This document shows, one piece after another, positions 2,844 through 50,755 of a stretch of DNA of 57,958 nt (its first letter is position 1; each line of letters begins with the position of its first letter). Both the position numbers and the translations under genes were made by a program. The DNA is from a virus (taxonomy: Duplodnaviria; Heunggongvirae; Uroviricota; Caudoviricetes). The DNA is taken from the IMG/VR virus record IMGVR_UViG_2778261152_000005, positions 1 through 57,958 of that record; one strand, written 5' to 3'. A model generated the notes under the pieces. That model did not search any database and was not told the DNA's origin. It worked only from the letters and a program-made list of their open reading frames with translations.

Positions 2844-2873
2844 TTAATGGTGCCGATAATAGGAGTAAAACAC
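2844..2873 (-). repeat. att copy 1: 19-nt thrW 3'-end fragment (2848-2866) inside a 30-bp direct repeat (ptwF-like)
   Basis: ttaatggtgccgataataggagtaaaacac is identical to 15535-15564. tggtgccgataataggagt is the reverse complement of the tRNA-Thr(CGU) thrW 3' end …ACTCCTATTATCGGCACCA. Confidence 0.85.
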
Positions 2874-3008
2874 TCGATTAATCTCGTGTTAATGCCATCA
2901 CCTACGACCATTACTAATTGATTGAATCTTATAGAAAAATCATCATTTTCTATGCGTCACAATCAATTTTCACATTACAAACGCTCCGACACTTTAGCCG
3001 GAGATTTT

Positions 3009-4286
3009 ATGAGATACAAGCCTAACCAATACTTAATCTGTGATTCTTACGGTAACTACTATTTAAGGATAACGCTGCCTGTGTATATGCAGCCCTTTTT
3101 TGAAGGAAAAAGGACGTTTGTCAGAAGTCTACACACAAGTAATCTTCGTGTTGCACGTAGAAAGCGTGATCAGATTGCAGATGAATACCATTGCTTACGG
3201 GAGAGTGTCGCCCCTGTAAACAGCACAATAGAAAACACGCTGGAACTGTTACGCAGTAAGGCTAAATACGCCAAAACAGCTACCAGAATGCAAGATACAG
3301 CGTCTTCGTGTCCGTCATTGCTTAAAATTCTTGAAATCTACCTGACAATTAACAGCACGAAGAAGAAGCCAGCCACTTTAGCTAAGGCAAGAAAAGCGGT
3401 AGAGATGTTTCTCTCCTACCGTAAAAAGCCTGATATTGCATTGCAAGATGTAAGCCGCACCACTGTTACAGGCTGGATTGAACACATGCAAAAAACCCTT
3501 TCACAACAATCAATTGCAAATTATATCAGCCCAATGGCCCAGCTATGGGAATTAGCTTCATCACGTTACCACGATGCGCCAGAAAGGGCGCTCTCCCCCT
3601 GGCGAGGGCATAGGCTTGATGTGGCACAAAGTAGAGAGAGCTACGAGGCATTTTCTAACAAAGAGCTATTGCAGGTGTTGCAAGTATTTTCCGGTGATTC
3701 AGCAGAAAACAAAGAAATGATGGCTTTGTGTCTTATCGGTGCCTATACAGGTATGCGGATCAATGAGATAGCAAGTCTCACAATAGACGATGTGAAAGAG
3801 ATCGAAGGTGTGCTGTGTTTTGAAATCACACAGGGAAAGACGAAAGCAGCGGCACGTGTTGTGCCTGTACATAGCCTTATCACTCCGTTGGTGTTGTCGC
3901 TGCGTGAAAAGCCTCACAATGGCTTTTTGTTCTATCACGCCAGCATTACAGAGCGTGCTGATGGTAAACGTTCCACGTGGCATACGCAGAGATTTACAAG
4001 AGCTAAACGAAAGGCTTTAGGGGAAAAGGGAACAGAAAGGAAAGTGTTTCATTCTCTGAGACACGGAGTAGCACAGCTTCTTGATCGAAATCAAATTCCA
4101 GAAGACAGGATCGCCCTTCTCCTGGGCCATACACGCGGCAATACAGAAACATTCCGCACATATAGCAAGAATGCAGCTTCTCCAGTAGAGCTTAAAAAAT
4201 ATATTGAGCTTTTACGCTACCCTGAAATAGAGAAAGGCTTATCAATCAATAAAAAATCAAATTTAAGGCGTAAAACAACACTGTAG
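3009..4286 (+). CDS. tyrosine recombinase / phage integrase of element A
   Basis: The C-terminal catalytic signature is present: …GMRINEIASL… (Arg), HSLRHGVAQLL (HxxR), LLGHTRGN (His), FRTY (Tyr). An ATG at 3009 has a GGAG SD 5 nt upstream. The ORF track extends to a TTG at 2922. The gene sits next to att copy 1. Confidence 0.85.
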   Translation: MRYKPNQYLICDSYGNYYLRITLPVYMQPFFEGKRTFVRSLHTSNLRVARRKRDQIADEYHCLRESVAPVNSTIENTLELLRSKAKYAKTATRMQDTASSCPSLLKILEIYLTINSTKKKPATLAKARKAVEMFLSYRKKPDIALQDVSRTTVTGWIEHMQKTLSQQSIANYISPMAQLWELASSRYHDAPERALSPWRGHRLDVAQSRESYEAFSNKELLQVLQVFSGDSAENKEMMALCLIGAYTGMRINEIASLTIDDVKEIEGVLCFEITQGKTKAAARVVPVHSLITPLVLSLREKPHNGFLFYHASITERADGKRSTWHTQRFTRAKRKALGEKGTERKVFHSLRHGVAQLLDRNQIPEDRIALLLGHTRGNTETFRTYSKNAASPVELKKYIELLRYPEIEKGLSINKKSNLRRKTTL

Positions 4287-4293
4287 ACGTAAT

Positions 4294-4326
4294 AAAGAGG
4301 CTTCAATATAGACTGATGCCTCTTTT
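4294..4326. terminator. bidirectional rho-independent terminator between convergent genes
   Basis: The hairpin aaagaggc-N16-gcctcttt is flanked by A/T runs. It lies between the integrase stop (4286) and the stop of the 4367-5044 ORF. Confidence 0.6.
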
Positions 4327-4366
4327 ATGATTATCTCGTTACAGAGCGTTTCATAGGCGTTTAAGG

Positions 4367-5044
4367 CTATTGTTTAAATACTGGCGTTACAACGTCTTGC
4401 CCTGGGCTTTTTTGATTTTTCTGTTCTGTTGTATTTACCTGCATTTTAACCTGTCCCCCTACAGATTTATTTGGTGCTGTTTTTACCGCAATTGCGCTTG
4501 TAGTTGCTTTAGAGACAAGACGGATTTGCTCAAAATCAAGAGTAAACAATAGGCTTTCGCTTGCTTCTTCTGCGTAAGACATGCCAACTAACACAACGTT
4601 GTCATAATTTTTTAACTCAGTGACAAGTAGGAAAGGTTGGCGACTGTCCATCAACTGATTTAGGTATTCAAGCATAAGCATACGTCGATTGCCGTTAATT
4701 CCCGCATTCTTAATCATATCGGGATTGAGCTTCAATACGGTTTCAGAGATACGCCCTTGTAATGTGAACTTGTTATTCCGTATTTGAACATGATCACTAA
4801 CTTCTGATCCTGATTCGACGGCATAGCTTGTAACGTCTGCATTTCGGCTAACTTTCGTCGATTCCACGCTATCAAATGATAATGCCTGGTAGTCATTGTA
4901 AGCAGCATTTGCACCACTGCCGAGGTTAGAGGTAATGATCGCAAAGCCGTTACCCCCTTTAGTTGTTCTACCGTTGCTATCGTTGCTTGTGCTGTTGATT
5001 TTCGCCTCAGTCGGGCGACCAATGGTTAACGGACCCATTGCCAT
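4367..5044 (-). CDS. putative tail/baseplate (Dit-like) virion protein
   Basis: 225-aa ORF immediately downstream of the tape-measure-like gene. The motif …VTSYAVESGSEVSDHVQIRNNKFTLQGRISE… resembles the conserved core of small phage distal-tail/baseplate proteins. This rests on memory of the family only. Confidence 0.4.
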   Translation of the reverse strand: MAMGPLTIGRPTEAKINSTSNDSNGRTTKGGNGFAIITSNLGSGANAAYNDYQALSFDSVESTKVSRNADVTSYAVESGSEVSDHVQIRNNKFTLQGRISETVLKLNPDMIKNAGINGNRRMLMLEYLNQLMDSRQPFLLVTELKNYDNVVLVGMSYAEEASESLLFTLDFEQIRLVSKATTSAIAVKTAPNKSVGGQVKMQVNTTEQKNQKSPGQDVVTPVFKQ

Positions 5045-5091
5045 AATTTGTAATCCTTATTTAAGGGGGCTAAACCGCCCCACAGTGATGA

Positions 5092-6933
5092 TTAATAGGT
5101 TGACCCGCCTGACATAACACCCAGCGTTAATAGCTTGCTAAACTCAGCGGAAGATGCCTTTGATTTGAAGTCGATAAATTCGCTCAATCGTCCGGTGTCT
5201 GATTCGATAGTTAGCGGCACTTCTGCATTTACTTGTAATTCTGGATTGAAGTTAATAACAGGTGCAAAGGTGTGGGAAGGAGTCTTGATAGCTTGTTGTG
5301 CTGCACTCTGTTTCAGATTTGCAATGTTTTGTCCTTCGAGAGTGTATTGATTTACAGCCTGCGCCCCGCCTACCGTCTCTTCTGGCGTAAACCAGCCTTT
5401 AATAGTGTTAACCAGGGAATTGCTGTTATCTGGCTTAGTTGTTCCGGTGCCAGCGCCTTTATATTGGTTAGGAGTGAGATTAGAAAGATTCTGCTTCATT
5501 CCTTCGTTAGACAGTGGCGGTGCATCACCTAAATTCTTTTGAATAGCAGCCGTCTTCTCGTCGTTTTTCATCAGCCAGTTGATTGCTTTCATTACAGCGT
5601 TAACCAATCCGCCGATAGCCTCGCCTAATTTGGTAAACATTGGCAGCATTGCAACCATGCTCTTTTTAAACTCTTCAATCACTTTCGGATCAAGAGATTT
5701 CATAAAGCCATCAACAAAGGCGATCCCTTGTGAGTCAGAAAGCCCACTAAGTGCATTATTCAGTTCACGGAATTTAATAACGCTTTCCTGTTGTGCCTGC
5801 GTTACCCAGCGCCCTGATTCTCGTTGTTCTCGTGCTGATTGTTCCACTTCTTTAGCGGAGCGTGTCCAGTATTTAGAGGTGAGCATCAAATCATCAGCCA
5901 GATCTTCCAGACGACTACCGATTTGTGCATCTGAATAGCCTTTAGCTACCATTCCCTGAACTGCTTTACTAACCAGACCAGCCGGATTATCAGCAAAGTC
6001 TTTTAGATCCTTTTTAGTTAGGAATCCTTCATTCATTAAAGTATTGATGCCGCTATCGCCGCCCTTCCATTCTCCTTTACCAGTTTTCTTATCAACTACA
6101 TATTCAGCCTCATCATAAGATTTAGTAGCCTTCTCCCGTACATCTTTCATCTGATCGAGATACTTACGTTTACCTTGTTCGCCCATCATTGAATCAACGC
6201 CGTTTTTATAAGCCCATTGTTCAATATTGTTCATCTGGTTAACGTCTACACCGCCCAGCTTCGCACGGCTATACAATTCACCCAGCGTTTCAGCATTCGC
6301 AAAGCTGTTAGTAACAAATTCAGAGGCTTTGCTCATAGCCATATACGTAGCGCCAGCGCCTAAGCCACCCAGCATAACAGCCGCAGCACCGCCGCCAATA
6401 CTCCCGCTACCCTTAACAGGTGCATAGGCTTTAGCGTGAGCGTTACGATTGCCATTAATCTTACGTTGTTGCTGTTGTAGGCGTTTCATTTGGCTATTCA
6501 TACGTGCCAGACTAATAGCTCCTCTTTCATATTGGAGGGCAATTTCTCTAGCCTGTGCAATAGCTTTATATTGTTCCGCTACAGAAAGACGGTGCATTGC
6601 ACTAATGCTTGATCCAACGTCTAAAAGCTTTAATTCTGCCTTCTCTTTGCGTGCTGCCAGGGCTTTTTGTTCTCTTGCAACTACACGTTGAGCGGCTAAT
6701 TGTGCTTTAGCATTAGCTTTATCAGCCTGTGCTTGCTTTTTAGCAATATCGTCTACGTCTTTTTTTGCTTTAGCGGTTGATTGTTTATGTGTCTTAACAC
6801 GCAATTCTATATCTTTCACCGCCGCCATTTGTTTACGAAGTTTTTCTACTTCTGCTTTTGCTTTCTCTAATGATGGTCGGTTAACTTCGAAGGTGACAAC
6901 GTTCGAGAGGCGTGCCACGTTTAGCTCTAACAT
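5092..6933 (-). CDS. tape-measure-like protein
   Basis: 613 aa. It has an N-terminal Lys/Ala/Gln-rich coiled-coil region, a Gly-rich hydrophobic segment (GSIGGGAAAVMLGGLGAGATYMAM) and a long helical remainder. This composition is typical of phage tape measure proteins. Confidence 0.45.
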   Translation of the reverse strand: MLELNVARLSNVVTFEVNRPSLEKAKAEVEKLRKQMAAVKDIELRVKTHKQSTAKAKKDVDDIAKKQAQADKANAKAQLAAQRVVAREQKALAARKEKAELKLLDVGSSISAMHRLSVAEQYKAIAQAREIALQYERGAISLARMNSQMKRLQQQQRKINGNRNAHAKAYAPVKGSGSIGGGAAAVMLGGLGAGATYMAMSKASEFVTNSFANAETLGELYSRAKLGGVDVNQMNNIEQWAYKNGVDSMMGEQGKRKYLDQMKDVREKATKSYDEAEYVVDKKTGKGEWKGGDSGINTLMNEGFLTKKDLKDFADNPAGLVSKAVQGMVAKGYSDAQIGSRLEDLADDLMLTSKYWTRSAKEVEQSAREQRESGRWVTQAQQESVIKFRELNNALSGLSDSQGIAFVDGFMKSLDPKVIEEFKKSMVAMLPMFTKLGEAIGGLVNAVMKAINWLMKNDEKTAAIQKNLGDAPPLSNEGMKQNLSNLTPNQYKGAGTGTTKPDNSNSLVNTIKGWFTPEETVGGAQAVNQYTLEGQNIANLKQSAAQQAIKTPSHTFAPVINFNPELQVNAEVPLTIESDTGRLSEFIDFKSKASSAEFSKLLTLGVMSGGSTY

Positions 6934-6967
6934 GCTAATTGTTTCCCTGTATTATGATTGTTGTTTG

Positions 6968-7165
6968 TTATTGTTTTTTAGAGCAATAATATTGGATTGC
7001 TTCGAAAGTGCTACATCCAGTCTGAAAGACACGCTGACGCACATTATTTGCATCAATTGAAAGCATTCTGCATAAGGCACTGACATTGATTATTGAGTCA
7101 TCGCTAATAGCTGCCAGTTCTTTTACAGATTTAAGAATTAATGCCTGTGAATTTTCTGTATTCAT
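6968..7165 (-). CDS. hypothetical small protein
   Basis: 65-aa ORF in the same orientation, between the capsid-like and tape-measure-like genes. Confidence 0.4.
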   Translation of the reverse strand: MNTENSQALILKSVKELAAISDDSIINVSALCRMLSIDANNVRQRVFQTGCSTFEAIQYYCSKKQ

Positions 7166-7318
7166 TGGTTTTCTCTCACATATATATTTTTATTTGGGTT
7201 TGTAGACAGTAGAAAAACAAAAAGGGCAAAGAGATTCGTTACTGTATTTGCGCCTACAGGTTAGTTAATCCCTTTACCATTATTTTCCAGACGATGGGAA
7301 TCGTCTATTAATGCTTTA

Positions 7319-8350
7319 TTACGCAGCAGATCCGAAGATGATAGCTTGCGGAATGTTGTTTACTGGCAGATAAGATGTCTCAGTAACCACAGATGGGAAT
7401 TGGAATTCATCCTTGATTAGATATTGGTGATGCAACACGGCATCTTGACCTAACTCAGCATGACGCACACCAACGCCGCTATGAAGCTGGTAACACTGTG
7501 CCGCTTTATCCATTACCGGGACAATTGCGAAACCGTTCTCTCCGATGTGAGCAACAATCTCAGGAAACATTGACACATCAATAACAGTGATCCCACCAAT
7601 CTGGAAAGAGTCATAGGCTGGGTTAGAATCAACCATACGGGTAAACAGGGCCGTAGCACTCGCATCGCCTGCATATTTCACCATGTCACTGATCAGCGGG
7701 TTAGATGACAAACCATCAGCAGCAGCGCCAGCAGCAAAGATAATTACACCAGTTCGCTTTGCAGCAAGACCAGACCCCAGCTTTTCACTCTGTAAGCGCA
7801 CCGCTTTACGAATAGCAAGGAACGGGTTAACAGTAGTCGATGCAAAGTCGATAGCGGGTACCGTGGTTTTAGCCTGACCGTCGAGGAAGTCGAGATCACC
7901 TTGTCCGGCATATTCAGATTCAACTTTCAGTCCCAGCAGCGCGGTAATCAGATCCACTTCAACACGGTTTGCGTGTGAACGGTAATGAGCCTCAGAGAAA
8001 TCATTAACCGCTACCAGCATAGCATCAGAACGGTTTGGATATTGGCGGCTGTATTGTTCCAGGTCACGAGAAGTAACAGCGTTAATACTGCCGACGTGTT
8101 TCATCTGGAAAAGTTTGTTTGACCATTCCTGACGTTTAGAAGCGTTCCAGTTGCTTTGAGTGTAAGGCGAGGTTTCCCCGGCTACCTGCACAAACTGCTC
8201 AATCAGGTCGGTAAGAAGAATGCTGTTTTCTGTATGATATTGCACATCGAACAGATCGAGATTAGTAATCAGGGTATTAAGTGCATTCTCATAAGCAAAT
8301 GGAGTTACTACCGCAGTATTAACGCCAAAATATGTTGATAAATCATTCAT
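7319..8350 (-). CDS. putative major capsid protein (lambda gpE-size class)
   Basis: 343 aa, directly preceded by a ~127-aa gene. This matches the decoration-then-capsid order and sizes of lambda D/E. There is no other long ORF on either strand here. The assignment rests on size, order and general composition only. Confidence 0.45.
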   Translation of the reverse strand: MNDLSTYFGVNTAVVTPFAYENALNTLITNLDLFDVQYHTENSILLTDLIEQFVQVAGETSPYTQSNWNASKRQEWSNKLFQMKHVGSINAVTSRDLEQYSRQYPNRSDAMLVAVNDFSEAHYRSHANRVEVDLITALLGLKVESEYAGQGDLDFLDGQAKTTVPAIDFASTTVNPFLAIRKAVRLQSEKLGSGLAAKRTGVIIFAAGAAADGLSSNPLISDMVKYAGDASATALFTRMVDSNPAYDSFQIGGITVIDVSMFPEIVAHIGENGFAIVPVMDKAAQCYQLHSGVGVRHAELGQDAVLHHQYLIKDEFQFPSVVTETSYLPVNNIPQAIIFGSAA

Positions 8351-8364
8351 TATTATTTTCCTTG

Positions 8365-8748
8365 TTAAGTCGTAGGGATCGCAAGTTCTTCATAACCAGC
8401 AATTACAAAGCCGAGAGATTGCAGTTTTGCAATAACACTTGCCTTTTCCATGCTGTTAAATTCAATCCCATCTTCAGCCAGAATAACGAAAGTAGGATGT
8501 GCAACCACTACGCTTTCCTGTCCTTCATAAGCCGGTTCAACTACTACGTGAGCAATATCAGAAGCGGTTGTTGCTTTGGTGCCATCGGCTTTCAGCAAAG
8601 CCCCGACAATAAGATCGTCAGTGAGAGGTGAAGCCAGTTTGACGAGGCGATCTTGCAGCACTGGATCAGCAGCGTAAGCTACTACCTTACAGCGTGAACG
8701 GGAGTTATCCGCATTCACTGCTTTTAATTTTCCATATGGGTTAGCCAT
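8365..8748 (-). CDS. putative head decoration protein (gpD-like)
   Basis: 127-aa ORF ending 14 nt before the capsid-like gene. Size and position match head-decoration genes. The assignment is weak. Confidence 0.35.
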   Translation of the reverse strand: MANPYGKLKAVNADNSRSRCKVVAYAADPVLQDRLVKLASPLTDDLIVGALLKADGTKATTASDIAHVVVEPAYEGQESVVVAHPTFVILAEDGIEFNSMEKASVIAKLQSLGFVIAGYEELAIPTT

Positions 8749-8752
8749 AAGA

Positions 8753-8950
8753 TTATTTTCCTTTCAGTTGTTTAATTTTAGATTTAAGGGCATCAGCAAG
8801 ACTAACCGCATCAGCCGATTTAAATAATTGAGCAGTGGTAGAACGAAGACTTTCGGGAGTAACTCACAACAGTGCGGCAACCTTAATGAGGTTTTCATCA
8901 CTAACAATCATCGTTTCCCCGTCTTTGCTGATAATCATTTCTTGTTTCAT
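8753..8950 (-). pseudogene. 66-codon reading frame interrupted by one in-frame TGA (codon 29; tca at 8864-8866 on the + strand)
   Basis: MKQEMIISKDGETMIVSDENLIKVAALL*VTPESLRSTTAQLFKSADAVSLADALKSKIKQLKGK. The frame is unchanged across the TGA. It ends at a TAA 4 nt before the ATG of the decoration-like gene. Confidence 0.35.
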
Positions 8951-9945
8951 AAATAACGTTCCTGTTAGTGCCAGACAAATAAAAAGCCCCAATGCCGTAA
9001 GAGGTTAATTCTGACCAGCAAAGGGGCTTTAACGTGCGGGCAATTACATAATTGATAAGTTAAACTATAAGAGGATTAAACATATCAGCAAATACACTTT
9101 TTAAATATACTTGATGATATGCTTAAAGAGTGAATATCAGACCTTAGAAAGGAAGGCTCTTAGGAGTTTGCCACTGGAATCACTAAGATCTGATATTCTG
9201 GGTGCGGGGGGCTAACCGCTGCCTGTTTTTGCTGTGGATGCAACAAAGTAAGGCTGTAAGGAATCACTATTCCAATTCTCATCTACTCACAGATCAAATT
9301 TTAATAGGATTAACTACACCAACAGTAATCTACCGTTTCAGAAAATCGTTTTTACAACCAAAGCTTATAGATCCGCATTCTATAAAACCCGTTTTGCTAT
9401 CAATATTTCCAAAGGTTATTGCACAATTCTTAGCTAAACTCTCTCTGCTTGCGGCTAACGCTATGCAGATGATTGTTTTTGACAACAACTTAATAGATTA
9501 TTCTGTTACTAACTTCTGTCATTAAATAAGAGTTTAATGATGTTAGTAAATAGTTATAAAATATAACTATCAGTGTAAGGCTCTTTAATGTTTTCGGACA
9601 AAATAAGGAGCTTTAGGATAAGCATAGATGAAAAATAAGAGCGGGAAGGGCAAGGAGATAACACCTACCCACCTTTATCAAAATTAAGCACAATGCCTAA
9701 CAACATTCATCAACACAACGTAGAAACAATCAACAATCAAAGAGGGAGTTATGATTATTCTAAAACTTCTTGAGAGATGGAAGGTAATATTTGTTAGAGG
9801 TTAATGCCACTCAACCCTTGAGGCTATCACCTTCCATATGCAGGGATTTATGACAATAGAAGGATTAACGCCAACTAAAATCTTTTTATCTATCCCTAAA
9901 ATTATTATATAACAAAATCATTATAAATGCAAATGATTTTCATTA

Positions 9946-10257
9946 TCATTTAGAGAAAATAGCACTTTTTGCTAAATCATCTACTAATTGCTGAATCTCT
10001 TCACTTGTAGCCTTTAACGTGCGGGCGGTGTCTGTGATAGTTCGAGTGCACAGCTTGGCATCGTCCTCAGATAGCTGCTCTAAATCGCTCACCAGAGAGA
10101 TAAAATCGTCAAGGCTTACATTCACCTTCATTAAGCTAATTACGCATTGAGAGAGCGTGTAATCGCATAAATCTGAATAGGCTTGATTGATACGTGTCTG
10201 TAGGGTGATCATCCGATCCGAAAGAGTGTCCATAACTTCCAGAATGTTGTCTGTCAT
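9946..10257 (-). CDS. hypothetical helical protein
   Basis: 103-aa ORF. Its start overlaps the stop of the upstream ORF (10254-10257), which implies translational coupling. Confidence 0.5.
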   Translation of the reverse strand: MTDNILEVMDTLSDRMITLQTRINQAYSDLCDYTLSQCVISLMKVNVSLDDFISLVSDLEQLSEDDAKLCTRTITDTARTLKATSEEIQQLVDDLAKSAIFSK

Positions 10258-10484
10258 TGTGCAATCTCTCCTTGATCTGCTGATTCCATCTCTTGCTGAA
10301 TCTGTTTATCCTTGTTTAGTGCAATCTGTAGTGGTATACGATAGGTTGCAATGTCATCCAGCACATCATCAAGCAAGGCAAAATCATTTTCTTCTTTTGC
10401 TCGTTCAGCCAGTGAAATAAACACTTCTGCAAGTTGTTTTGCTTCTTTAAAAAATGTTGTTTCTAATAGTTGATAGTTAATCAT
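10254..10484 (-). CDS. hypothetical acidic helical protein
   Basis: 76-aa ORF coupled to 9946-10257. Confidence 0.5.
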   Translation of the reverse strand: MINYQLLETTFFKEAKQLAEVFISLAERAKEENDFALLDDVLDDIATYRIPLQIALNKDKQIQQEMESADQGEIAQ

Positions 10485-10542
10485 TATTTTTCCTTTTTCG
10501 AATATTTTTCATTGGGCGCTTATACATACGCCCGTCATTTTA

Positions 10543-10926
10543 TTAGTTAGAACGTTTGTTAGAAGCTAATGTATCTTCTAAATGAGCCATCAGATCGACT
10601 TCCGAAACACCACCTACACAATTATTGAAAGCGTTAAATCCCAAAAAATGATGATAGGAGCTAAACCCTAAAAGCTGCCAACGTTTCAGAGTGCCATCAG
10701 AAATGATAGTTTGTTTTCTTGTTTTTGGGCGAAAGTAAACGCCTGGCATTGATTTGATTATTTCTTGTTCTTCATAGCTTAATTCAGGGGATTCTGTTTC
10801 AAGAATAAATATTATCTCTTCCCCTGGAATTTCGTTATTGGTGTGTGTCGGTGGACGTTGTCTTGTTGAATTGAAGTTACTGTTTTTTTCAATACGTTTT
10901 AAGTTGTTCTTTTTCTTTCTTCCCAT
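10543..10926 (-). CDS. hypothetical protein with basic N-terminus
   Basis: 127-aa ORF (MGRKKKNNLKRIEK…) in the same orientation as the Rep-like operon. Confidence 0.45.
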   Translation of the reverse strand: MGRKKKNNLKRIEKNSNFNSTRQRPPTHTNNEIPGEEIIFILETESPELSYEEQEIIKSMPGVYFRPKTRKQTIISDGTLKRWQLLGFSSYHHFLGFNAFNNCVGGVSEVDLMAHLEDTLASNKRSN

Positions 10927-11061
10927 TTTCCCTCTTTTTATGTGGATTATAAAAACTTGATGCCATTGTTACAATGAATATCGCCATAAATGCATTTGCC
11001 ATATGTATTGCCCGATCTGTTGTTATTGATTGTTTGTGATGTTATAAATCATTTATTCTCC

Positions 11062-11631
11062 TTAGAATGGTATTGAATCGTATATTTCACTTTTTTCTCT
11101 TAGAGATATTATCAGATCGTGAAAAGCCTGTTTCTCAAGATAGATATTCTTTGAATCTAATGCTCGTTTTACAAAATCTTCTGTTTCTTCGTGCGGTGGT
11201 TTCTTCTTATCAAGGGAAAGAAGCCAAGTAAAAATTTCGGGCCGTTCAGGGAACTCAGGCTCTTGTGTTTCTTCTTCAACGATGATTTCGGAAACATTCA
11301 ATATTTCATTAGATTCGTCTTCTTTCTCAGAAGGATCAGGTAGTGATGATTCTCCTTTTGGAATATCAAGCACTCGATAAAGGTTAGAGCTTCCTGGTCG
11401 TGCATCTTTTATAATTAATCCCATTTCGAGCAATTTCTTAACCCTTTCTTCTGCTGCTCTTGGTGTTATGCCAAAAACATCGCCTATCTTAGCGTAAGAG
11501 GGAAATGCACGATCAAACCCTCTCAAATAGCAGTAAAGGTTTTTAGCACTATCTGTAAATTTATGCCCGTTTACTTGGCTTATTTTTAGAATCCACATAG
11601 GAACTTTTACAAATTGTTCTTCATTAATCAT
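11062..11631 (-). CDS. winged-helix DNA-binding protein, putative replication initiator of element A
   Basis: MINEEQFVKVPMWILK…AKNLYCYLRGFDRAFPSYAKIGDVFGITPRAAEERVKKLLEMGLII is a wHTH of the phage/plasmid Rep/O N-terminal type. It lies downstream of a sigma70 promoter and close to five 22-23-bp iterons. The start is taken at the Met at 11631; the track ORF extends to 11655. Confidence 0.5.
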   Translation of the reverse strand: MINEEQFVKVPMWILKISQVNGHKFTDSAKNLYCYLRGFDRAFPSYAKIGDVFGITPRAAEERVKKLLEMGLIIKDARPGSSNLYRVLDIPKGESSLPDPSEKEDESNEILNVSEIIVEEETQEPEFPERPEIFTWLLSLDKKKPPHEETEDFVKRALDSKNIYLEKQAFHDLIISLREKSEIYDSIPF

Positions 11632-11684
11632 TAAAAATCTCCTTGATGTAATCACGCTCTACGGCGCTACTATGGTGATAAAAA

Positions 11685-11855
11685 TCACTTGCTTTTGTTT
11701 GAGAGTGTTTCAGCCTCTCTTTTCAACATATCAAGAATGTAATCTGTAACAGTGATACGTTTACTTCTGGCTTCTTTAAACAACACCTGAAATACTTCAT
11801 CAGGAATATGAAAGCAAGTGCGTGGTTGTCTTTTCTTTTCTGTAGTTTCGCTCAT
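11685..11855 (-). CDS. ribbon-helix-helix (CopG/Arc-like) protein
   Basis: 56-aa ORF not in the track: MSETTEKKRQPRTCFHIPDEVFQVLFKEARSKRITVTDYILDMLKREAETLSNKSK. It shows the basic strand-helix-helix pattern and has a ggagaaggag SD upstream. Confidence 0.55.
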   Translation of the reverse strand: MSETTEKKRQPRTCFHIPDEVFQVLFKEARSKRITVTDYILDMLKREAETLSNKSK

Positions 11856-11876
11856 AGTTTTCTCCTTCTCCTGTTA

Positions 11877-12053
11877 TTATTCTTTCTCTGCCTTACGCAG
11901 TTCATCAATAATTTTTAGTGCATCGTCAAAGCATTTTTCACGCTCTGGATAACCACAGCGTCGCGCTGTGTTCCTGTTCATCCTTACTTTAAAACGATTA
12001 ATCTCACCACGTTTCCAGGCTTCAACTACATCTTGAGAAGTGAAATACTTCAC
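11877..12053 (-). CDS. hypothetical small protein, first gene of the Rep operon
   Basis: 58-aa ORF with a GTG start and an aggagg SD 7 nt upstream (VKYFTSQDVVEAWKRGEINRFKVRMNRNTARRCGYPEREKCFDDALKIIDELRKAEKE). It is too short to appear in the track. Confidence 0.45.
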   Translation of the reverse strand: MKYFTSQDVVEAWKRGEINRFKVRMNRNTARRCGYPEREKCFDDALKIIDELRKAEKE

Positions 12054-12169
12054 TAATTAACCTCCTATTCTATTTGGTTAAAAGAAAAAACACCTTGCAA
12101 GCCTGACGGCTTCAAAGTGCATTGATTTTAATTATTTAGAGGATGGGAATGTTTTCCTGTCCTAATATT

Positions 12170-12198
12170 ACTTTACCACGACTAAAGGCTTTTGTCAA
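12170..12198 (-). promoter_or_regulatory. sigma70-type promoter of the Rep operon
   Basis: The minus strand reads TTGACA-17 nt-TAAAGT. The -35 is flanked by the inverted repeat cgacta…tagtcg, a possible operator. Confidence 0.5.
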
Positions 12199-12491
12199 CC
12201 CGTAGTCGTAAAAATATTGATCTTTTTCAGTAAGTTATGATATTGCTTAACAATTCGTGCTCTTTTTCTTCCTTATTGTCTAAAACGCTCTAAAACGCCC
12301 TCTGACGAGGTTTTGATAAATACAATAATTCCCTTATGTAGAGGCTGTTTAGCTCGCCAGAGGCTTGATTTAAGCGGTAGAATCTCATCTACTACCTAAC
12401 ATCTTTAAACCATATTTTTCTTTTTTGTCTGTTTGATGGTTGATCTATAGTTATGCGTTAGCATCCCCAAAGGGGTAACGCTACTCTAATT

Positions 12492-12865
12492 GCATTCGCC
12501 AGAACATTGCACAAGAAATTTATTTTAGATGATTGATGATCGTTAGATTGGCGTAAGCCTCATCAATGGAACTATTGAAGCGCACAGCGCATAGACACTA
12601 ACAACCATTCGCTTACGCTCAGGTTATTGCACAAGTAAATTTCAATCGTTAGATGGTAGTTAGTTAATTATCGTTCTGCGCACAGCGCAAGACTATTTAG
12701 CCTTACGCAAGCCGTAGGCTATTTGCACATAGTAGATTACATATTCGTTGTGAGCGGCATTAGCGAACATAGATCTACTAACTAACATCAACAAACAAAA
12801 ACTATGTGTTATGACAAGCAGTCTAACGACTAACACTCTAACTTGTGCAAGGTTCTGGCGAATGC
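12492..12865. repeat. pair of 24-bp inverted repeats (23/24 match) bracketing a 326-bp internally repetitive segment
   Basis: gcattcgccagaacattgcacaag (12492-12515) matches the reverse complement of cttgtgcaaggttctggcgaatgc (12842-12865). Inside are further ttgcaca(a/t)ag copies at 12627 and 12723. The hairpin motif gcgcacagcgca recurs at 12580 and 12678, about 98 bp apart. Confidence 0.75.
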
Positions 12866-12982
12866 CAATAGATTAAGGGATAGTCAAGGACTCCCCTAAC
12901 GGGTATCCCTATAATTATTCTTTAAAGATAAAAGAATTTATAAAAGATAATTTAATTGTAGTTTTATAGTTGATCTAATAGG

Positions 12983-13650: not shown

Positions 13651-13671
13651 ACAAATCAACACAGAAGGAAA

Positions 13672-14445: not shown

Positions 14446-14474
14446 TTGACACCATGCAAAGTGAATAGTAAACT
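14446..14474 (+). promoter_or_regulatory. sigma70-type promoter
   Basis: TTGACA (14446-14451), a 17-nt spacer, then TAAACT (14469-14474). It lies about 80 nt upstream of the 52-aa membrane ORF. Confidence 0.5.
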
Positions 14475-30588: not shown

Positions 30589-30589
30589 G

Positions 30590-42013: not shown

Positions 42014-43315
42014 ATGCCAGACGTTCACGCACGACTTTCACCGTCTTCAGCGCATCGGTGGATGCGTTGCCCCGGTAGCCTGGCGCTGGAAGCCACTCAG
42101 CCAGACAAAGAAACGTCCTTCGCTTTAGAAGGTACCGCAGCGCATTCGCTTGCCGAAAAGGTGCTGCGCAACCGCCAGAATCACCCGGAACACTATGCGG
42201 GTTGCAATGTAGCGATGTTTCTCGGTTCTTATCCTCTTGCCGAGCTCCCGGATGATACTTCCAGCCCGCAGGTAGATGAGGAAATGGTCGAAGCCGTTGG
42301 CCGTTACGTCGACACCGTCTGGACGCTGTCGCAGGGTCATGAGCTCCTGGTCGAGCAGCGTGTCGACTTCTCCCACATCGTGGGGGTCGAAGAATCATTC
42401 GGCACCGCTGACGGCGTAATCATCGCAGGTAACGAGCTGCAGATCCACGACCTGAAATATGGTAAGGGTGTGCGGGTCGATGCCGAGCAGAACGAGCAGC
42501 TGCAGCTCTATGCTCTGGGCGCGCTTGAGCAGTTCAGCATGCTGTACGACTTTGAAACGGTGCGTCTGTTCATCCACCAGCCACGACTTAACCACGTTTC
42601 AGAGTGGGCGCTGACGGTGGAAGAACTCCAGGCGTTCGGCGAACGGGCGCAGGAAGCGGCGGCTAATGTGATCGTGATGTTCAACATTGCCGATTGCGAA
42701 GGCGTCGAAACCCTGCCGCTGGAAAACTTCACTCCTGGTGAAAAACAGTGCCGGTTCTGCAAAGCCAAAGCCGTCTGCACTGCACAGAAAATGCAGCACA
42801 TGCAAACAGCTGCCGGCGAATTCGAAGATCTGACAAAACCGGTTAGCGAAATCGTCACTGATGCCAGCTCACGCGTACCACTACTCACCATAGAGGAACT
42901 GGCGGAGATCTACAGCCAGGCCGACGCTATCGAATCATGGCTAAAGGCTGTGCGCGACCGGGTGAACAGTGAGCTGAACGCCGGGCATCCGGTACCGGGC
43001 TTTAAGCTGGTTACTGGCAAACAGGGCAATCGTGCCTGGAGCGATGAAGAAGCCGCCCGCGCGCTGCTGAAAGACCAGTTCCGTTATAAAACTGAGGAGG
43101 TTTTCGACCTTAAGCTGATTAGCCCAACCAAAGCCGAGAAGCTCATCAAAAAGGCCAGCCCTCGCCGCTGGACAAAGGTCGAAGCGCTGATCACTCGCGC
43201 TGACGGAAAGCCCTCCGTTGCACCTGAATCCGACCCGCGCCCTGCGCTAAATATCAACCCTGTTAACGATTTCGACGACTTGTCCGACGACGCGCTCGCC
43301 GCAGACCTCATCTGA
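42014..43315 (+). CDS. PD-(D/E)xK Cas4-like nuclease (DUF2800-type) with Fe-S cysteines
   Basis: The N-terminus [26 protein letters not shown] is typical of DUF2800. The DxK-type core is …HDLKYGKG…. The Cys cluster is C…[10 protein letters not shown]. Confidence 0.7.
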
Positions 43316-44056: not shown

Positions 44057-44132
44057 TCCACACCCACCCGGCCATGCGCCGGGTGTTTTGCAAAGAGCCT
44101 CCCTTTTCGCAAAGCACCCGCGAGGAATATCT

Positions 44133-46199
44133 ATGCCTGAAACCATTCTCTGGGGCGACCTGGAAACCTATTGCGAGATACCCATCACGAACGGCACGCA
44201 CGCTTATGCGGAAGGTGTCGAAGTGATGTTGTTTGCCTGGGCCATCGGCGACGAGCCGGTTAGCGTCTGGGATCTGATTGCTGGCGAACCTATCCCCAGC
44301 AGGCTGCGGAAGGCCATTGCCGATCCCGACACTCTGCTTTATTTCCACAATTCACATTTTGACCGTACGGTGCTGCGCCATGCAATGCCGGAGCTGGCGC
44401 CGGACGTTACCCGCTGGCACGACACGATGGTGCAGGCGCTGGCGCACAGCCTCCCCGGCGCGCTGGGGGCACTCTGTGAGGTGCTGGGCGTACCGCAGGA
44501 CAAGGCGAAGGACAAAGAAGGTAAAGCACTGATTCAGCTGTTCTGTAAGCCACGTCCGAAGAACAGCAAGCTGCGCCGCGCAACCAGCAAAACGCACCCG
44601 GTAGAGTGGCAGAGGTTCGTTGCCTACGCCGGGCTGGATATCGAGGCGATGCGCGAAGTTTATAAGCGGCTACCGAAGTGGAACTATCAGGGCGCCGAGC
44701 TGGCGTTATGGCATCGTGACCAGCGGATCAACGACCGCGGCGTATGCATGGATGTGCAGCTCGCACAGGCCGCCATCGAAGCGGTAGACCTTGAACAGAA
44801 AAGGCTGGCAAAGCGCACGCAGGTGATGACCGACGGCGAAGTACAGGCGGCCACACAGCGCGATGCGATGATTAAGCACATTGTCGAATCGTACGGCGTC
44901 GAGCTGCCGGATATGCAGCGCAGCACGCTGGAACGTCGCATCGCCGACCCTGACCTGCCGTCACCGGTGAAAGAGCTGCTGGCTATCCGCCTGCAGGCCA
45001 GCACCACGAGCACCAGTAAGTACAAATCGCTGATGAAGGGTATCAGCAGCGACGGGCGTCTGCGCGGTACGCTGCAATTCTGCGGCGCATCGCGTACCGG
45101 GCGCTGGGCCGGGCGGTTATTCCAGCCCCAGAACCTGCCCCGCCCGACGCTTGAGCAGGAACGCATCGATGAAGGCATCGAGGCGCTTAAATCCGGCTGC
45201 GCCGATCTGCTTTTCGATAATGTCATGGAGCTGACCAGTTCGGCGCTGCGCGGTTGCATTATGGCGCCGGCGGGTAAAAAGCTGGTTGTATCTGACCTGT
45301 CGAACATCGAAGGCCGAAAGCTGGCCTGGCTTGCCGGTGAGCAGTGGAAACTTGACGCATTCCGGCAGTACGACGAGGGCACTGGCCCCGACCTTTATAA
45401 GCTGGCCTACGCCAAAGCATTCAACATCACCCCGGAAGAAGTGACCAAATATCAGCGCCAGATAGGCAAGGTGATGGAACTGGGCCTCGGGTTTGGTGGA
45501 GGTGTCGCGGCGTTCCTGACCTTCGCACTGGTTTACGGCCTCGATCTTGAGGAACTGGCAACCGCAGCGCTGCCGAATATCCCGCGCGATGTGCGGCGCG
45601 AGGCTCAGAGCTGGTATGACGAATCGGTTAAACGCAAAGCGACGTATGGGCTATCGGAGCGCGTATTCATCGCTTGCGATTCGCTTAAGCGCCTGTGGCG
45701 CCGGGCACACCCGAAAACCTGCGATTTCTGGTACCAACTCGAGCGCACTGTCCGTGCCGCTATTGTCACCCCTAAGAAAACACTCTATTGCGGCTATCTG
45801 AAAGTGCGCCGCGATGGCGCATGGCTGCGTATCCAGTTGCCGTCCGGGCGCGCACTCTGCTACCCGTCGCCGTCGATTGAGAAAGGAAATATCACCTACA
45901 TGGGGATTAACTCCTACTCGCGGAAATGGCAACGGCTCAAAACCTACGGCGGAAAGCTGGTCGAAAACGTAACACAGGCCGCCGCCCGCGACGTTCTGGC
46001 CGGGAACATGCCGCTGATCGAGGATGCCGGTTACAGCATTGTGCTGACGGTACACGATGAAGTGATCACCGAAGCGCCGGACACTGACGATTTCAACGAT
46101 AAAGCACTCTCCGCGCTGCTCTCCACTAACCCCGAATGGGCGCCCGATATCCCGCTGAACGCTGGCGGCTTCGAGGCGTATCACTACCGTAAGGATTAA
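44133..46199 (+). CDS. family A DNA polymerase with 3'-5' exonuclease domain
   Basis: ExoI is WGDLETY. Motif A is [11 protein letters not shown]. Motif B is [16 protein letters not shown]. Motif C is LTVHDEV. The ATG at 44133 has a GAGGAA SD; the track ORF starts at 44088. Confidence 0.85.
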
Positions 46200-47312: not shown

Positions 47313-47815
47313 ATCTTCCGGCCATTCTCGACATGTGCTGCGGTTCTCGTATGTTTTGGTTTAACAAAAGCGACCCGCGCGCCGTGTATTTGGATGCCCG
47401 TAGCGAGTCACACGTGCTTTGCGATAACAGGAAGTTGGAGATTCGCCCGGACGTACTCGGTGATTTCAGACAGTTGCCATTTGCCGACGGTCAATTTTTA
47501 CAGGTGATATACGATCCCCCTCATCTGCGCCGCGCCGGGCCTAACGGCTGGATGCGAAAAAAGTATGGCCAGTTGGATAAAGAGAACTGGCGTGAAGATC
47601 TTCGCGCAGGATTCGCAGAAGCATTTCGCGTGCTGGCACCCGGCGGCACGTTAATTTTCAAATGGAATGCTACGCAGATCCCTGTCCGCCAAATTATAGA
47701 ATTAACCGACCAGCAACCTACTATCTGGCAACGCACTGGCAAAGCAGATAAAACCCACTGGATAGTATTTTTAAAAGCCGTAGAGGGGTACCAGAACGGA
47801 TATGACCTCATCTAA
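47309..47815 (+). CDS. SAM-dependent (DNA) methyltransferase
   Basis: 168 aa. The motif I-like sequence is ILDMCCGS. The motif IV is DPPH. The target base is not deducible. Confidence 0.6.
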   Translation: MNLPAILDMCCGSRMFWFNKSDPRAVYLDARSESHVLCDNRKLEIRPDVLGDFRQLPFADGQFLQVIYDPPHLRRAGPNGWMRKKYGQLDKENWREDLRAGFAEAFRVLAPGGTLIFKWNATQIPVRQIIELTDQQPTIWQRTGKADKTHWIVFLKAVEGYQNGYDLI

Positions 47816-49202
47816 AATTTTCACCCCCCGCCCTTATCAAGACCTCATCATCAACCACGAAATCGACATCCTGCGCTGCAACATCTGGGCGGGCATGGGC
47901 ATGGGTAAAACCGTGGCGACGCTCACCACGCTGGAAGATCTCTTTATGGCGGGCGCAGAGACTCAGCCCGCGCTGGTTCTCGCGCCGCTGCGCGTGGCGG
48001 CCAGCACCTGGCCGGATGAAGCGGTTAAATGGGGGCATCTGCGCAATATCGAGGTACAGCCGATTGTTGGTAATGCCAAAGCGCGCGCGGCAGCGCTGGC
48101 GAACAGCAACGCCAGCGTGTTTACCATCAACTACGACAATCTGGTCTGGCTGGTGGAAGAACTGGGCGGCCGCTGGCCGTTCGGTACCGTTATCCCCGAC
48201 GAAAGCACCCGGCTGAAATCCTTCCGGCTGCGCGGTGGCGGTAAGCGCGCGGCGGCGCTGGGCAAAGTGGCACATAAACATATCCGACGCTGGATGAATC
48301 TCACTGGTACGCCAGCGCCAAACGGCCTGGTGGATTTGTGGGGGCAGGCGTGGTTTGTGGATCAGGGGCAGCGCCTCGGGCGAACTTACGGCGCGTTTAC
48401 CTCCCGCTGGTTCAACTCAATACAGTTTCCGGGGCAGAGCTGGACGAAGCTGGAACCGTTCACCCATTCGCAGGACGAAATACAGCGGGCACTGGCCGAC
48501 GTCACTATCTCCCTGGACGCCGCCGACTGGTTCGATATCAAAGAGCCTATCCATAACGTGATCCGCGTAGACATGCCGCCGAAGGCTCGCCAGCAGTATC
48601 GTGAAATGGAAAAGGAAATGTTCCTCGAGCTGAACGGCGAAGGCATCGAAGCGCCTAACGCCGCGGCAAAAACGGTGAAGTGTCTGCAAATCGCCAGCGG
48701 CGCGGTGTACACCGACGACGCCGGGAGCTGGTCAGAACTGCACGACGCGAAGCTGCAGGCGCTGGACAGTATTCTCACCGAAGCAGCTGGCGCGCCGGTA
48801 CTGGTGGCCTACCACTGGAAACACGACCTCGAGCGTTTGCTTAAAGCATTCCCTCGCGGTCGCCACCTCGACCAGGATCCACAGACGCTGCGCGACTGGA
48901 ACGCCGGAAAGATACCGGTTCTGTTCGCACACCCGGCCAGCGCAGGCCACGGCCTGAATATGCAGGACGGTGGCAACATATTGGTGTTTTTCTCGCACTG
49001 GTGGGACCTGGAACAGTACCAGCAAATTATCGAACGCATCGGTCCAACCCGGCAGATTCAGGCCGGACACAACCGCCCGGTGTTCATTCACCACATTATC
49101 GTCGCCGACACTATGGACGAAATGGTGATGGAACGCCGCAACTCAAAACGAACAGTGCAGGACATCCTGCTCGATGCCATGAAAAAGAGAGGTATAGCAT
49201 GA
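47802..49202 (+). CDS. SNF2/DEAD-like superfamily 2 helicase
   Basis: 466 aa. Walker A is AGMGMGKT. Motif II is IPDESTRLK. The C-terminal helicase lobe contains …HPASAGHGLNMQ…. Confidence 0.8.
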   Translation: MTSSKIFTPRPYQDLIINHEIDILRCNIWAGMGMGKTVATLTTLEDLFMAGAETQPALVLAPLRVAASTWPDEAVKWGHLRNIEVQPIVGNAKARAAALANSNASVFTINYDNLVWLVEELGGRWPFGTVIPDESTRLKSFRLRGGGKRAAALGKVAHKHIRRWMNLTGTPAPNGLVDLWGQAWFVDQGQRLGRTYGAFTSRWFNSIQFPGQSWTKLEPFTHSQDEIQRALADVTISLDAADWFDIKEPIHNVIRVDMPPKARQQYREMEKEMFLELNGEGIEAPNAAAKTVKCLQIASGAVYTDDAGSWSELHDAKLQALDSILTEAAGAPVLVAYHWKHDLERLLKAFPRGRHLDQDPQTLRDWNAGKIPVLFAHPASAGHGLNMQDGGNILVFFSHWWDLEQYQQIIERIGPTRQIQAGHNRPVFIHHIIVADTMDEMVMERRNSKRTVQDILLDAMKKRGIA

Positions 49203-49387
49203 CACCGGTTATCTCTGACACTGACCTGATTAACATCAAAGAGGTTGAGCGCTCTGTTGGCCTGAAAAAATCCAGCATTTATGAGCGCATCAGTAATAAC
49301 GAGTTTCCGAAGCCTAAGAAGCTCGGGAGCCGAACCTCCCGCTGGGTACGCGGCGAGGTCGAAGAGTGGAAAAAACAGTTTCTTTAA
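49199..49387 (+). CDS. AlpA-family HTH protein (excisionase/regulator)
   Basis: 62 aa: MTPVISDTDLINIKEVERSVGLKKSSIYERISNNEFPKPKKLGSRTSRWVRGEVEEWKKQ. An ATGA overlap joins it to the helicase stop. It is convergent with the integrase. Confidence 0.75.
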   Translation: MTPVISDTDLINIKEVERSVGLKKSSIYERISNNEFPKPKKLGSRTSRWVRGEVEEWKKQFL

Positions 49388-50556
49388 ATCAAACGAAGCT
49401 GGTCAATATAATCCGCATACCACTGCATCATTTCCCGACGCCCTTCCATATACAGGGCATGGTTATAAACCCCGCGTATATTGTTCTTGTCCACGTGGGC
49501 GATCTGGAGTTCAACCCAGTCAGAGTTGAATCCTTTATCGTTCAGGATAGTGCTGAACGTATGCCGGAAGCCATGCCCTACTACCCTCCCCTTATACCCC
49601 AGCGTGTGGATCATCCTGTTTATTGTGTTCTCGCTCATGACCTTTGACGGGTCATTCCTGCCGGGGAACATATTCACGTATCGACCTGTCAGCCCGTGCA
49701 GTTCTTTTAGCAAGACGACAAGCTGATCGGAAAGAGGTACCAGGTGCGGGCGGTCCATCTTCATAAATTCGGCGGGTATCTCCCACAGCCGATTATCGAA
49801 ATCTACCCATTCCCATTTTGAATGCCGCAGTTCGTAAGTACGCAGCCCCGCCAGCATCATGATCTGCAACCCCAGCCGGGGCAGCGGGCTCCCCTTGTAA
49901 CTCTCAAGCGCCGCGAGAAAATCAGGCAGTTCCTCCGCCGTCAGGAACGGGAAGGACTCTCCTTTATGCCCGGTCATTGCGCTATTCAGTTCGCTGACGG
50001 GGTTATACTTCGCGCGCCCAGTCGCAACTGCATAGCTGAATACTTCACCGCACCACCGGCGCGTTTTGGCTGCTTTCTCGGTTGCGCCGCGATTCTCAAT
50101 TTTGCGCAGTGCCCTCAGCATCTGGACAGGCTCGATTTCAGCAACTGGCAGCTTACCCACCGCTGGGAAAATATCTTTGTTGAATGCTTCGAGAATGTCA
50201 GAGGCATAGCCAGGCGACCAGCGCGGCTTCTTGAATTCATGCCATTCTATCGCGATCTCTTTTAACGTGATCGTCTTTACTGCCGCAGCTGCGGCATGGC
50301 TTTTGACTTTTACCGGGTCAACACCTGCCGCAACGTTACGCCGGGCCTCGTCGCGTTTTTCGCGAGCGGCCGCCAGCGAAACAGCCGGGTATACCCCGAG
50401 CGCCAGCATCTTTTCTTTACCGGCGAAAGTATAGCGATAGCGCCAGTATTTTGCCCCGCTGGTTTTCACCAGCAGGATAAGCCCGTTGCCGTCTGGCAGC
50501 TTATAGTCTTTCTCGGCAGGCTTTGCCGTCTCGACCTGTCGCGCGTTTAGTTTCAT
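49384..50556 (-). CDS. P4-type tyrosine integrase of prophage B
   Basis: 390 aa from the ATG at 50556. It begins MKLNARQVETAKPAEKDYKLPDGNGLILLVKTSGAKYWRYRY…, the DUF4102-type arm-binding N-terminus. The catalytic signature is HGFRHTFST…QIAH…Y. The track ORF extends to 50646. Confidence 0.9.
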   Translation of the reverse strand: MKLNARQVETAKPAEKDYKLPDGNGLILLVKTSGAKYWRYRYTFAGKEKMLALGVYPAVSLAAAREKRDEARRNVAAGVDPVKVKSHAAAAAVKTITLKEIAIEWHEFKKPRWSPGYASDILEAFNKDIFPAVGKLPVAEIEPVQMLRALRKIENRGATEKAAKTRRWCGEVFSYAVATGRAKYNPVSELNSAMTGHKGESFPFLTAEELPDFLAALESYKGSPLPRLGLQIMMLAGLRTYELRHSKWEWVDFDNRLWEIPAEFMKMDRPHLVPLSDQLVVLLKELHGLTGRYVNMFPGRNDPSKVMSENTINRMIHTLGYKGRVVGHGFRHTFSTILNDKGFNSDWVELQIAHVDKNNIRGVYNHALYMEGRREMMQWYADYIDQLRLI

Positions 50557-50557
50557 A

Positions 50558-50601
50558 GGTACCCGCCTCAAACTCAGATACCCGATTATGTACCCGTTTT
50601 T
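50558..50601 (+). promoter_or_regulatory. arm-type integrase binding repeats (right arm) / int promoter region
   Basis: ggtacccgcc…gatacccgattatgtacccgttttt carries three (g/a)tacccg copies. It matches 15615-15638. Confidence 0.5.
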
Positions 50602-50709
50602 AATTTGGATTGCAACGGCAAAAGGTGGATTATGGCGGACAAACAAAACGCCTAATATGGCGAATTTAAAGGAAAAATGGAGGACTAAGGATGTTAGCGG
50701 ATTAAAAAA

Positions 50710-50755
50710 TGGTGCCGATAATAGGAGTCGAACCTACGACCTTCGCATTACGAAT
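50710..50755 (-). pseudogene. thrW: thrW tRNA-Thr(CGU) 3' fragment, 46 nt from the anticodon loop to CCA (att copy 3)
   Basis: tggtgccgataataggagtcgaacctacgaccttcgcattacgaat is the reverse complement of thrW from …ATTCGTAATG… to …GGCACCA. The match ends in the anticodon stem, and the D-arm and 5' acceptor are absent. Confidence 0.85.

Follow-up and report, generated by a model that had tools for sequence, protein, structure and literature searches.

The DNA analysed here, 57,958 nt of a virus record in IMG/VR (IMGVR_UViG_2778261152_000005; hereafter the window), is a tandem array of integrative elements at the threonine tRNA gene thrW. From left to right it consists of a chromosomal flank with paoD, a small phage-like element (element A), a temperate podovirus prophage (prophage B) and the left part of a degraded lambdoid prophage (remnant C). 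It is likely that these are three independent integrative elements, and that B entered an existing array, in which A and C were already separated by a 46-nt fragment of thrW. A first-pass annotation had described the thrW copies at the borders as nested. The three copies of the thrW 3' end are real, but they are the direct repeats of adjacent elements in tandem and are not nested.

The repeat is the 19-mer TGGTGCCGATAATAGGAGT, the reverse complement of the final 19 nt of the tRNA-Thr(CGU) gene thrW, CCA included. It is found three times on the plus strand, at 2848-2866, 15539-15557 and 50710-50728, against an expectation of 0 from shuffled sequences. Copies 1 and 2 are identical to each other over 30 bp (2844-2873 and 15535-15564), made up of ttaa, the 19-nt core and aaaacac, and they diverge at the first base beyond this on both sides. 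Set against the intact gene in the comparator loci L001 and L002, copy 3 (50710-50755, plus strand) retains 46 nt of thrW and reaches the anticodon loop; base 47 matches the tRNA too. Both the 30-bp identity and the 46-nt copy had been noticed in the first-pass annotation and are borne out by the sequence, as is its reading of the partial copies as the marks of three adjacent integrative elements, with the core at the borders of A and B and the 46-nt copy at that of C. Direct attachment-site (att) repeats matching the tRNA 3' end are present at both ends of A and at both ends of B, and a tyrosine integrase gene lies beside one att end of each, intA by copy 1 and intB by copy 3; the integrase of C is seen in comparators.

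The junctions can be divided as follows. At copy 1, the distal junction of A (2844-2873, plus strand), the native ttaa at 2844-2847 and the core at 2848-2866 are followed by the arm of A, aaaacac, at 2867-2873. At copy 2, between A and B (15535-15564, plus strand), the right end of A gives ttaa at 15535-15538, the core is at 15539-15557, and the arm of B gives aaaacac at 15558-15564. Copy 3, between B and C, is the distal att copy of remnant C, and its first 19-21 nt probably doubled as the crossover core of B. To the left of copy 1 is the chromosomal flank distal to thrW (1-2843, plus strand), recognised from the RefSeq annotation of the collinear loci L001, L002 and L003, with the 3' part of paoC (to 1366), paoD (1376-2332) and a fragment of a LysR-family gene (2383-2721). 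This set of genes is the customary distal boundary of the thrW island region, and the flank terminates in the native thrW trailer, ...ctctttgattttaa. In the comparators the paoD flank adjoins the first thrW copy regardless of whether the neighbour is A, B or C.

No intact tRNA was found in the window by ARAGORN, and a gathering scan of the whole window against Rfam gave no match. The contig NKEV01000021.1 of assembly GCA_002462895.1 has the same A-B-C layout and ends at the right end of the window, 57958, inside a tail-fibre gene, and it is this break in the contig or assembly that puts the intact thrW out of sight. That the gene lies past the right edge, as had been predicted, agrees with synteny, which would place it about 2.6 kb away in a layout like that of strain EC96 and about 13.7 kb away in the closer layout of 2017.02.03CC.

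The evidence that decides who owns the bases at the junctions comes from genomes in which each element is alone at thrW. Strain c1-17 lacks B, and its element A is bordered by the paoD flank on one side and by intact thrW-proA on the other. The distal junction of A there is base for base that of copy 1, aaaacac included, and the proximal junction leads directly into the native tRNA. The distal junction of A is also invariant in E189, in O26 RM10386 (L004, L005) and in 18 IMG/VR contigs. The right end of A, which in the window reads ...gttattgattttcttaa, was found in 490 of the 5,426 complete E. coli genomes. In 453 of these it adjoins 46 nt or more of thrW, an approximate number that may admit A-46-nt-C junctions (178 of 221 nt, 80.5% coverage), and allowing for these A lies directly on intact thrW in about 300 or more. 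A count of 651 genomes for this arrangement was discarded, the trailer ...ttattgattt being common to other elements. The right end is polymorphic, with cttga in most copies and cttaa, at 100% identity, on intact thrW in O26 RM8426, O103 RM8385 and others. We rejected this g/a polymorphism as a means of placing the crossover or ordering the events; no simple reciprocal exchange fits it, and the 'a' form is already found at native thrW.

Prophage B is present in none of the 5,426 complete E. coli genomes. An exact-protein look-up led to GCA_004380855.1, where B, with identical TerL and helicase proteins, stands alone between the paoD flank and intact thrW-proA. The distal junction there is flank-ttaa, the core and then aaaacacagcaaataacc... 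(aaaacacagcaaataaccacatg...), the same as the right side of copy 2, so that the arm aaaacacagcaaat is seen as B's own at native thrW, without A. The proximal junction is gattaaaaaa followed by intact tRNA-Thr(CGU) and proA, and the same proximal arrangement is found in GCA_015675075.1. Junctions of B alone put its core at about 21 nt, as had been proposed. A degraded relative of B is alone at thrW in strain EC2, with the arm aaaacaaagaaaat (aaaacaaagaaaataagc...). Genomes with A and no B, and with B and no A, were thus both found and their junctions read.

Element C is alone in EC96 and 2017.02.03CC, where the flank is directly followed by the 46-nt copy and C sequence; in EC96 the 46 nt beside the chromosomal flank are followed by ttataagaatcc. 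Remnant C is 98-100% identical in DNA to these two genomes, and in them C continues to an integrase of SfIV type, intact thrW and proA. In the best comparator for C, the integrase encoded at the thrW end shares 99.7% identity with that of phage SfIV and about 90% with the integrase of a P22-like Salmonella phage. SfIV is flanked by a 46-bp phage attachment site (attP) identical to those of SfI and SfV and integrates at thrW (PMC3851460), and P22-type phages rebuild thrW upon integration (PMC8022706). The identity between 50710-50755 and intact thrW, from the CCA end to the anticodon loop, likewise spans 46 bp. The proposal of a third element to the right, with a core reaching the anticodon loop, is well supported by this. 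Intact tRNA-Thr(CGU) was recognised by ARAGORN as regenerated in the genomes with A alone, with B alone and with C alone.

These junctions show that, at copy 1, ttaa belongs to the native tRNA trailer and aaaacac opens the arm of A; at copy 2, ttaa is the trailer-like right end of A itself and aaaacac opens the arm of B. Since the arms are separately owned, the 30-bp identity carries no sign of A having used the junction of B. The first-pass annotation had suggested that A integrated into the distal junction of B or shares an attP with it. Neither this nor an origin of the extra bases of the repeat in B holds, because A is found alone at native thrW with the identical ttaa, core and aaaacac, that is with the same 30-bp repeat, in genomes that lack B; the relative of A in Citrobacter has GTAACAC at this position.

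A junction without B, read directly in 23CRST007, runs from (A)...gattttcttaa through the 46-nt copy to ttataagaatcc...(C), just as the window would if B were taken out. The same A-46-nt-C junction is present at full length in at least 15 genomes; a broader count of 150 genomes is approximate and may include sites where the flank itself adjoins the 46-nt copy and C. We propose that each element is delimited by a tRNA 3'-end copy left through the crossover of its tyrosine integrase. Element C would have used the 46-bp core of the SfIV/P22 type and left the 46-nt copy at its distal end, and A, with a DUF6538-type integrase, would have recombined within the final 19-21 nt of thrW, as would B with its P4-type integrase. 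The lineage would first have held the common A-46-nt-C array, and the rare, intact B would then have entered the 46-nt partial copy between A and C, which keeps all that its integrase should need. The products would be copy 2, with the end of A, the core and the arm of B, and copy 3, with the integrase-side arm of B, the core, the remaining 27 nt and C. Late insertion of B into the partial copy is the most parsimonious history, because A and the A-C array are common and C has decayed, while B is both rare and intact. Experiments with SfI and SfX have demonstrated tandem integration at thrW (PMC3306764), which is a recognised integration hotspot (PMC7545054).

Several points weigh against this account. 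Every attP carries the exact tRNA sequence, so any order of integration gives the same final structure, and it is parsimony alone that orders the events. The distal junction in the genome with B alone is a perfect match, 30 of 30, to the attP of A, which means that A could have come after B. The exact identity of the A and B arms, seven bases of seven, lacks a mechanistic account. The genome counts are approximate for the reasons given above, and in the assembled genomes from which all of this is drawn, neither excision nor an attP circle was seen for A, B or C. In the IMG/VR contigs, the left neighbour of A may be the chromosomal flank, a B-type integrase-side arm or a C-type integrase-side arm, and arrays at thrW therefore form in all orders. 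In some of these contigs (L019, L030), a B-type integrase-side arm and a B-type arm flank one core, which fits either an attP or a tandem of two elements.

The order given in the first-pass annotation, with C first, then B and then A, can for the same reason not be deduced from the structure, and it is less parsimonious than the entry of B into an A-C array. The annotation went further and had A inserted into the distal junction of B, dependent on B-type att sites or travelling together with them, which would make the two a candidate pair of helper and satellite. We find this very unlikely. The junction of B alone, with flank-ttaa, core and aaaacac, would indeed be a usable target, and elements of the A family and elements with P4-type integrases are often neighbours at thrW. 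The dependence is nevertheless contradicted by the hundreds of genomes in which A has the same junction at native thrW without B, and there is no co-occurrence to explain, with the right end of A in 490 and B in none of the complete genomes, and with B itself occurring without A. The junction in 23CRST007 has A and C side by side without B, and the arrays come in every order, with A also to the right of B-type and C-type elements. The two integrases, IntA and IntB, show no BLASTP similarity and are unrelated. Moreover, A encodes tape-measure-like and Dit-like tail proteins, which belong to long-tailed phages and are a misfit with B, a podovirus without a tape measure protein. It is conceivable in principle that A and B make up a single composite element, mobile as a unit, in which copy 2 is an internal relic, and they are adjacent both in the window and in GCA_002462895.1. 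This is extremely improbable, as A and B both occur singly at thrW, each having complete junctions and its own integrase, and joint excision would be expected to pair an A-type with a B-type arm, a combination that should fit the arm sites of neither integrase.

The arm of A upstream of intA (2867-2922, plus strand) begins with an insert of 33 nt after the core (2867-2899), aaaacactcgattaatctcgtgttaatgccatc, which holds the dyad AACAC-N12-GTGTT (2869-2890). After the insert comes another thrW-like piece, acctacgacc/attac.aat (2900-2922), which corresponds to the region from the T-stem to the anticodon stem of the tRNA. Judging from this, the arm looks like a thrW-like segment of at least 46 nt that has been split by the 33-nt insert. 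The design is kept in a Citrobacter relative (L058/L059), whose integrase is 55% identical to IntA and whose arm reads GTAACAC...GTGTT...tctacgaccttcgca; the second tRNA-like piece, tctacgaccttcgca, matches the tRNA even better than that of A. A search for A-type arms without the 33-nt insert, using the uninterrupted pattern, gave no match, and one extra locus, L052, is a mere point variant. The insert might conceivably be a scar that an older element left behind. Relatives of IntA at 57-65% identity in E. coli and Klebsiella (L054-L057) lie beside a different, class-II, Leu-like tRNA 3' end, tggtgccgaaggccggactcgaaccggcacg..., where the tRNA identity is uninterrupted over about 44 nt and neighbours encoding a Dit-like protein and a protein of about 620 residues are retained. 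This shows that the A family has changed its tRNA target. These data on the diversity of the A arms were taken from protein look-ups, and a scan of contigs for IntA relatives gave one Escherichia locus. In the Klebsiella locus L057, a P4-type integrase gene lies directly across the att copy from the IntA relative. It was also possible to observe a degenerate att copy, TGGTGCGATAATAGGAAC, between A and a P4-type neighbour (position 16240 in L005/L009 and position 320 in L010), in which one C is lost and the 3' end is changed. Such copies suggest either that internal att copies decay or that the attP cores of these neighbours have diverged.

The arm of B on the side of the lysis genes (15558-15634, plus strand) has an imperfect dyad and two repeats. 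The dyad, AAAACACAG-N20-CTGTATTTT, starts straight after the core and covers 15558-15595, and the repeats, two copies of GATACCCG, are at 15615-15634. An arm of this type is kept over about 75 nt in 19 distinct arms, and 22 IMG/VR contigs carry B-type arms. The wider motif G(A/T)TACCCG occurs 10 times in the window as compared to 2.3 expected, and it is found in both arms of B, at 15615-15634 and at 50559-50596, the latter between the start codon of intB and copy 3. The distribution is as expected of arm-type sites, and these repeats are candidate arm-type sites for IntB. The two integrase genes, intA and intB, are situated on opposite sides of the core.

The core is followed by the same 7 nt in two elements whose integrases belong to unrelated families, a minor oddity of the locus. 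One reading of it would be that AAAACAC is functional, as a common core-type half-site or as a site for a host factor on which the two integrase families have converged, with distal junctions serving as favoured secondary bacterial attachment sites (attB). In each of the two arm families, the motif makes up the left half of an imperfect dyad that is conserved. The A dyad, AACAC-N12-GTGTT, is retained in the Citrobacter relative, and the B dyad, AAAACACAG-N20-CTGTGTTTT, has 88% of cells paired as compared to 38-68% in slid controls, with one compensatory change of G-C to A-T in four sequences among 19 related arms. Most P4-type arms at thrW begin with AAAACA, AAAAGA or AATACA, and A-type and B-type elements are repeatedly neighbours. 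Set against this, the tRNA itself accounts for three of the seven bases (AAC, as in cgAACct), and the other four are A, A, A and C within A-rich arms. The positions also vary, with GTAACAC in the Citrobacter relative of A, AAAACAA in EC2 and in O26 elements, and AAAAGAA, AATACAC and CGAACAA in other P4-type elements. Native thrW is without the motif, yet both elements integrate there. The hairpins are thermodynamically unremarkable, the folding z-scores of the A and B arms being -0.8 to +0.2, and on these scores we rejected the dyads as terminators or stable hairpins. Protein binding is then likelier than a hairpin, and the dyads may be protein-binding sites. A functional AAAACAC remains unlikely in our opinion, and chance, tRNA ancestry and the composition of the arms together are a likelier explanation of the shared 7-mer than a shared half-site or cross-recognition, to which we give a low probability. 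A little less likely again is the stronger form, that the distal junctions mimic each other's attP half-site after convergence on AAAACAC, are preferred as secondary attB and so promote mixed arrays. If true, such convergence would actively favour the accretion of mixed arrays at thrW.

Element A (2867-15538, about 12.7 kb), bounded by the core repeats and annotated with Pfam and PHROGs, is small, phage-like and widespread, and long stretches of it are non-coding. The integrase gene intA (3009-4286, plus strand) is at the tRNA-distal end and is transcribed away from copy 1; it encodes a tyrosine integrase of 425 residues with DUF6538, Phage_int_SAM_5 and Phage_integrase domains. It is followed on the minus strand by genes for a Dit-like tail protein (4367-5044), a tape-measure-like protein of 613 residues (5092-6933), a major-capsid-like protein of 343 residues (7319-8350) and a RepO-like helix-turn-helix protein of 197 residues (11062-11655), and on the plus strand by a DNA invertase gene (13672-14229). 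The invertase is of Hin/Pin type, and no obvious invertible segment was noted; its homologue in 23CRST007 is interrupted by ISVsa5. The element has only about 12 open reading frames (ORFs), and next to the capsid-, tape-measure- and Dit-like proteins there was no match to a terminase or portal in Pfam or PHROGs. About 3.8 kb are without convincing ORFs, with gaps at about 8950-9946, 12050-13670 and 14300-15530, and these are unannotated in the RefSeq comparators as well. PADLOC gave no match to its proteins, and neither Pfam nor PADLOC revealed a satellite or defence hallmark. Elements related to A are found in Klebsiella, Citrobacter and Enterobacter. In the literature, a search for thrW plus satellites gave no description of element A.

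Prophage B (15558-50709, about 35.1 kb) is, according to PHROGs and Pfam, a temperate podovirus with T7-like structural and replication modules, and from its gene content it looks intact. The lysis genes are at the arm that begins at 15558. They are followed by genes for an O-antigen-type acyltransferase (17052-18041), a T7-type tail fibre (18094-20034), TerL (20055-21665), internal virion proteins (22065-27676), nozzle and tail proteins (28600-30651), the major capsid protein (31211-32203) and the portal (33400-35025). The replication and regulatory part has a primase-helicase (36554-38260), a CI-like repressor (39007-39681), a PD-(D/E)XK nuclease (42014-43315), DNA polymerase A (44088-46199), an SNF2 helicase (47802-49202) and an AlpA-like Xis (49199-49387). 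No phage RNA polymerase and no tape measure protein were seen in the PHROGs and Pfam annotation. The integrase gene intB (49384-50556, minus strand) is at the tRNA-proximal end of B, beside copy 3, and the gene call is backed by L065 and L066. It encodes a P4-type tyrosine integrase of 390 residues with the Pfam domains Arm-DNA-bind_3, Phage_int_M and Phage_integrase, and is 93.8% identical in DNA to the integrase gene of the B-like thrW remnant in strain EC2. At the DNA level B has only distant similarity to deposited phages, namely TL-2011b and Yersinia YeP4-6.

Remnant C (50756-57958), assigned from Pfam and the comparators, is the left part of a degraded lambdoid prophage and runs off the window. 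It begins with a transposase fragment, which is followed by IS1 (about 51150-51917), an ORF of 1182 codons (52231-55779), a hexapeptide acetyltransferase gene (56339-56884) and, on the minus strand, a tail-fibre assembly gene (56895-57467) and a tail-fibre fragment (57467-57928). The 1182-residue product, encoded just downstream of IS1, was without a match in Pfam and PADLOC. Its ORF is found at 98-100% DNA identity at the same locus in several E. coli genomes.

The closest known arrangement is that of SfI next to SfX in Shigella flexneri (PMC3306764), where thrW is also the target and a second element has integrated at the att copy of the resident, giving a series with att repeats. Unlike in that case, the elements here number three, their integrases are unrelated to one another, the cores come in two lengths (19-21 nt and 46 nt), one junction has apparently been used as a secondary site made of a partial tRNA, and the window is known from its sequence alone. 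The 46-nt thrW fragment of copy 3 is like that of the SfI/SfIV/SfV/P22-type module (PMC3851460), to which P22 with its attP in thrW also belongs (PMC8022706); the window differs in holding only the distal, degraded part of C, riddled with insertion sequences, with the integrase and the intact tRNA outside. IntB shares with the P4-family integrases the set of domains, a gene start beside attP, repeats on both arms and a tRNA regenerated on the integrase side. Unlike the integrase of P4, it belongs to a T7-like temperate podovirus and not to a P4-like satellite, its target is thrW and not leuX, and the binding of the repeats is presumed from their pattern. Element A resembles P4 with P2, the phage-inducible chromosomal islands (PICIs) and the capsid-forming PICIs (cfPICIs) (PMC10085698) in its small size (12.7 kb), its integrase, its partial set of virion-like genes and its prophage neighbour. 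It is unlike such helper-satellite pairs in that it does not co-occur with B, matches no satellite or defence hallmark and has tail-type genes that misfit a podovirus.

The locus is thus an ordinary array at a tRNA hotspot, of a well-understood kind, and what looked like a signature of dependence at a junction vanishes once each element is found alone, which is a clean negative result. Elements A and B both appear to be undescribed, and they are worth cataloguing, B as a rare temperate T7-like prophage of E. coli with a P4-type integrase, and A as a widespread, uncharacterised, phage-like element of 12.7 kb. Taken together, the locus is a well-resolved case of how an array builds up at a tRNA hotspot, in which an intact prophage appears to have entered a tRNA fragment of 46 nt that lay between two elements older than itself.

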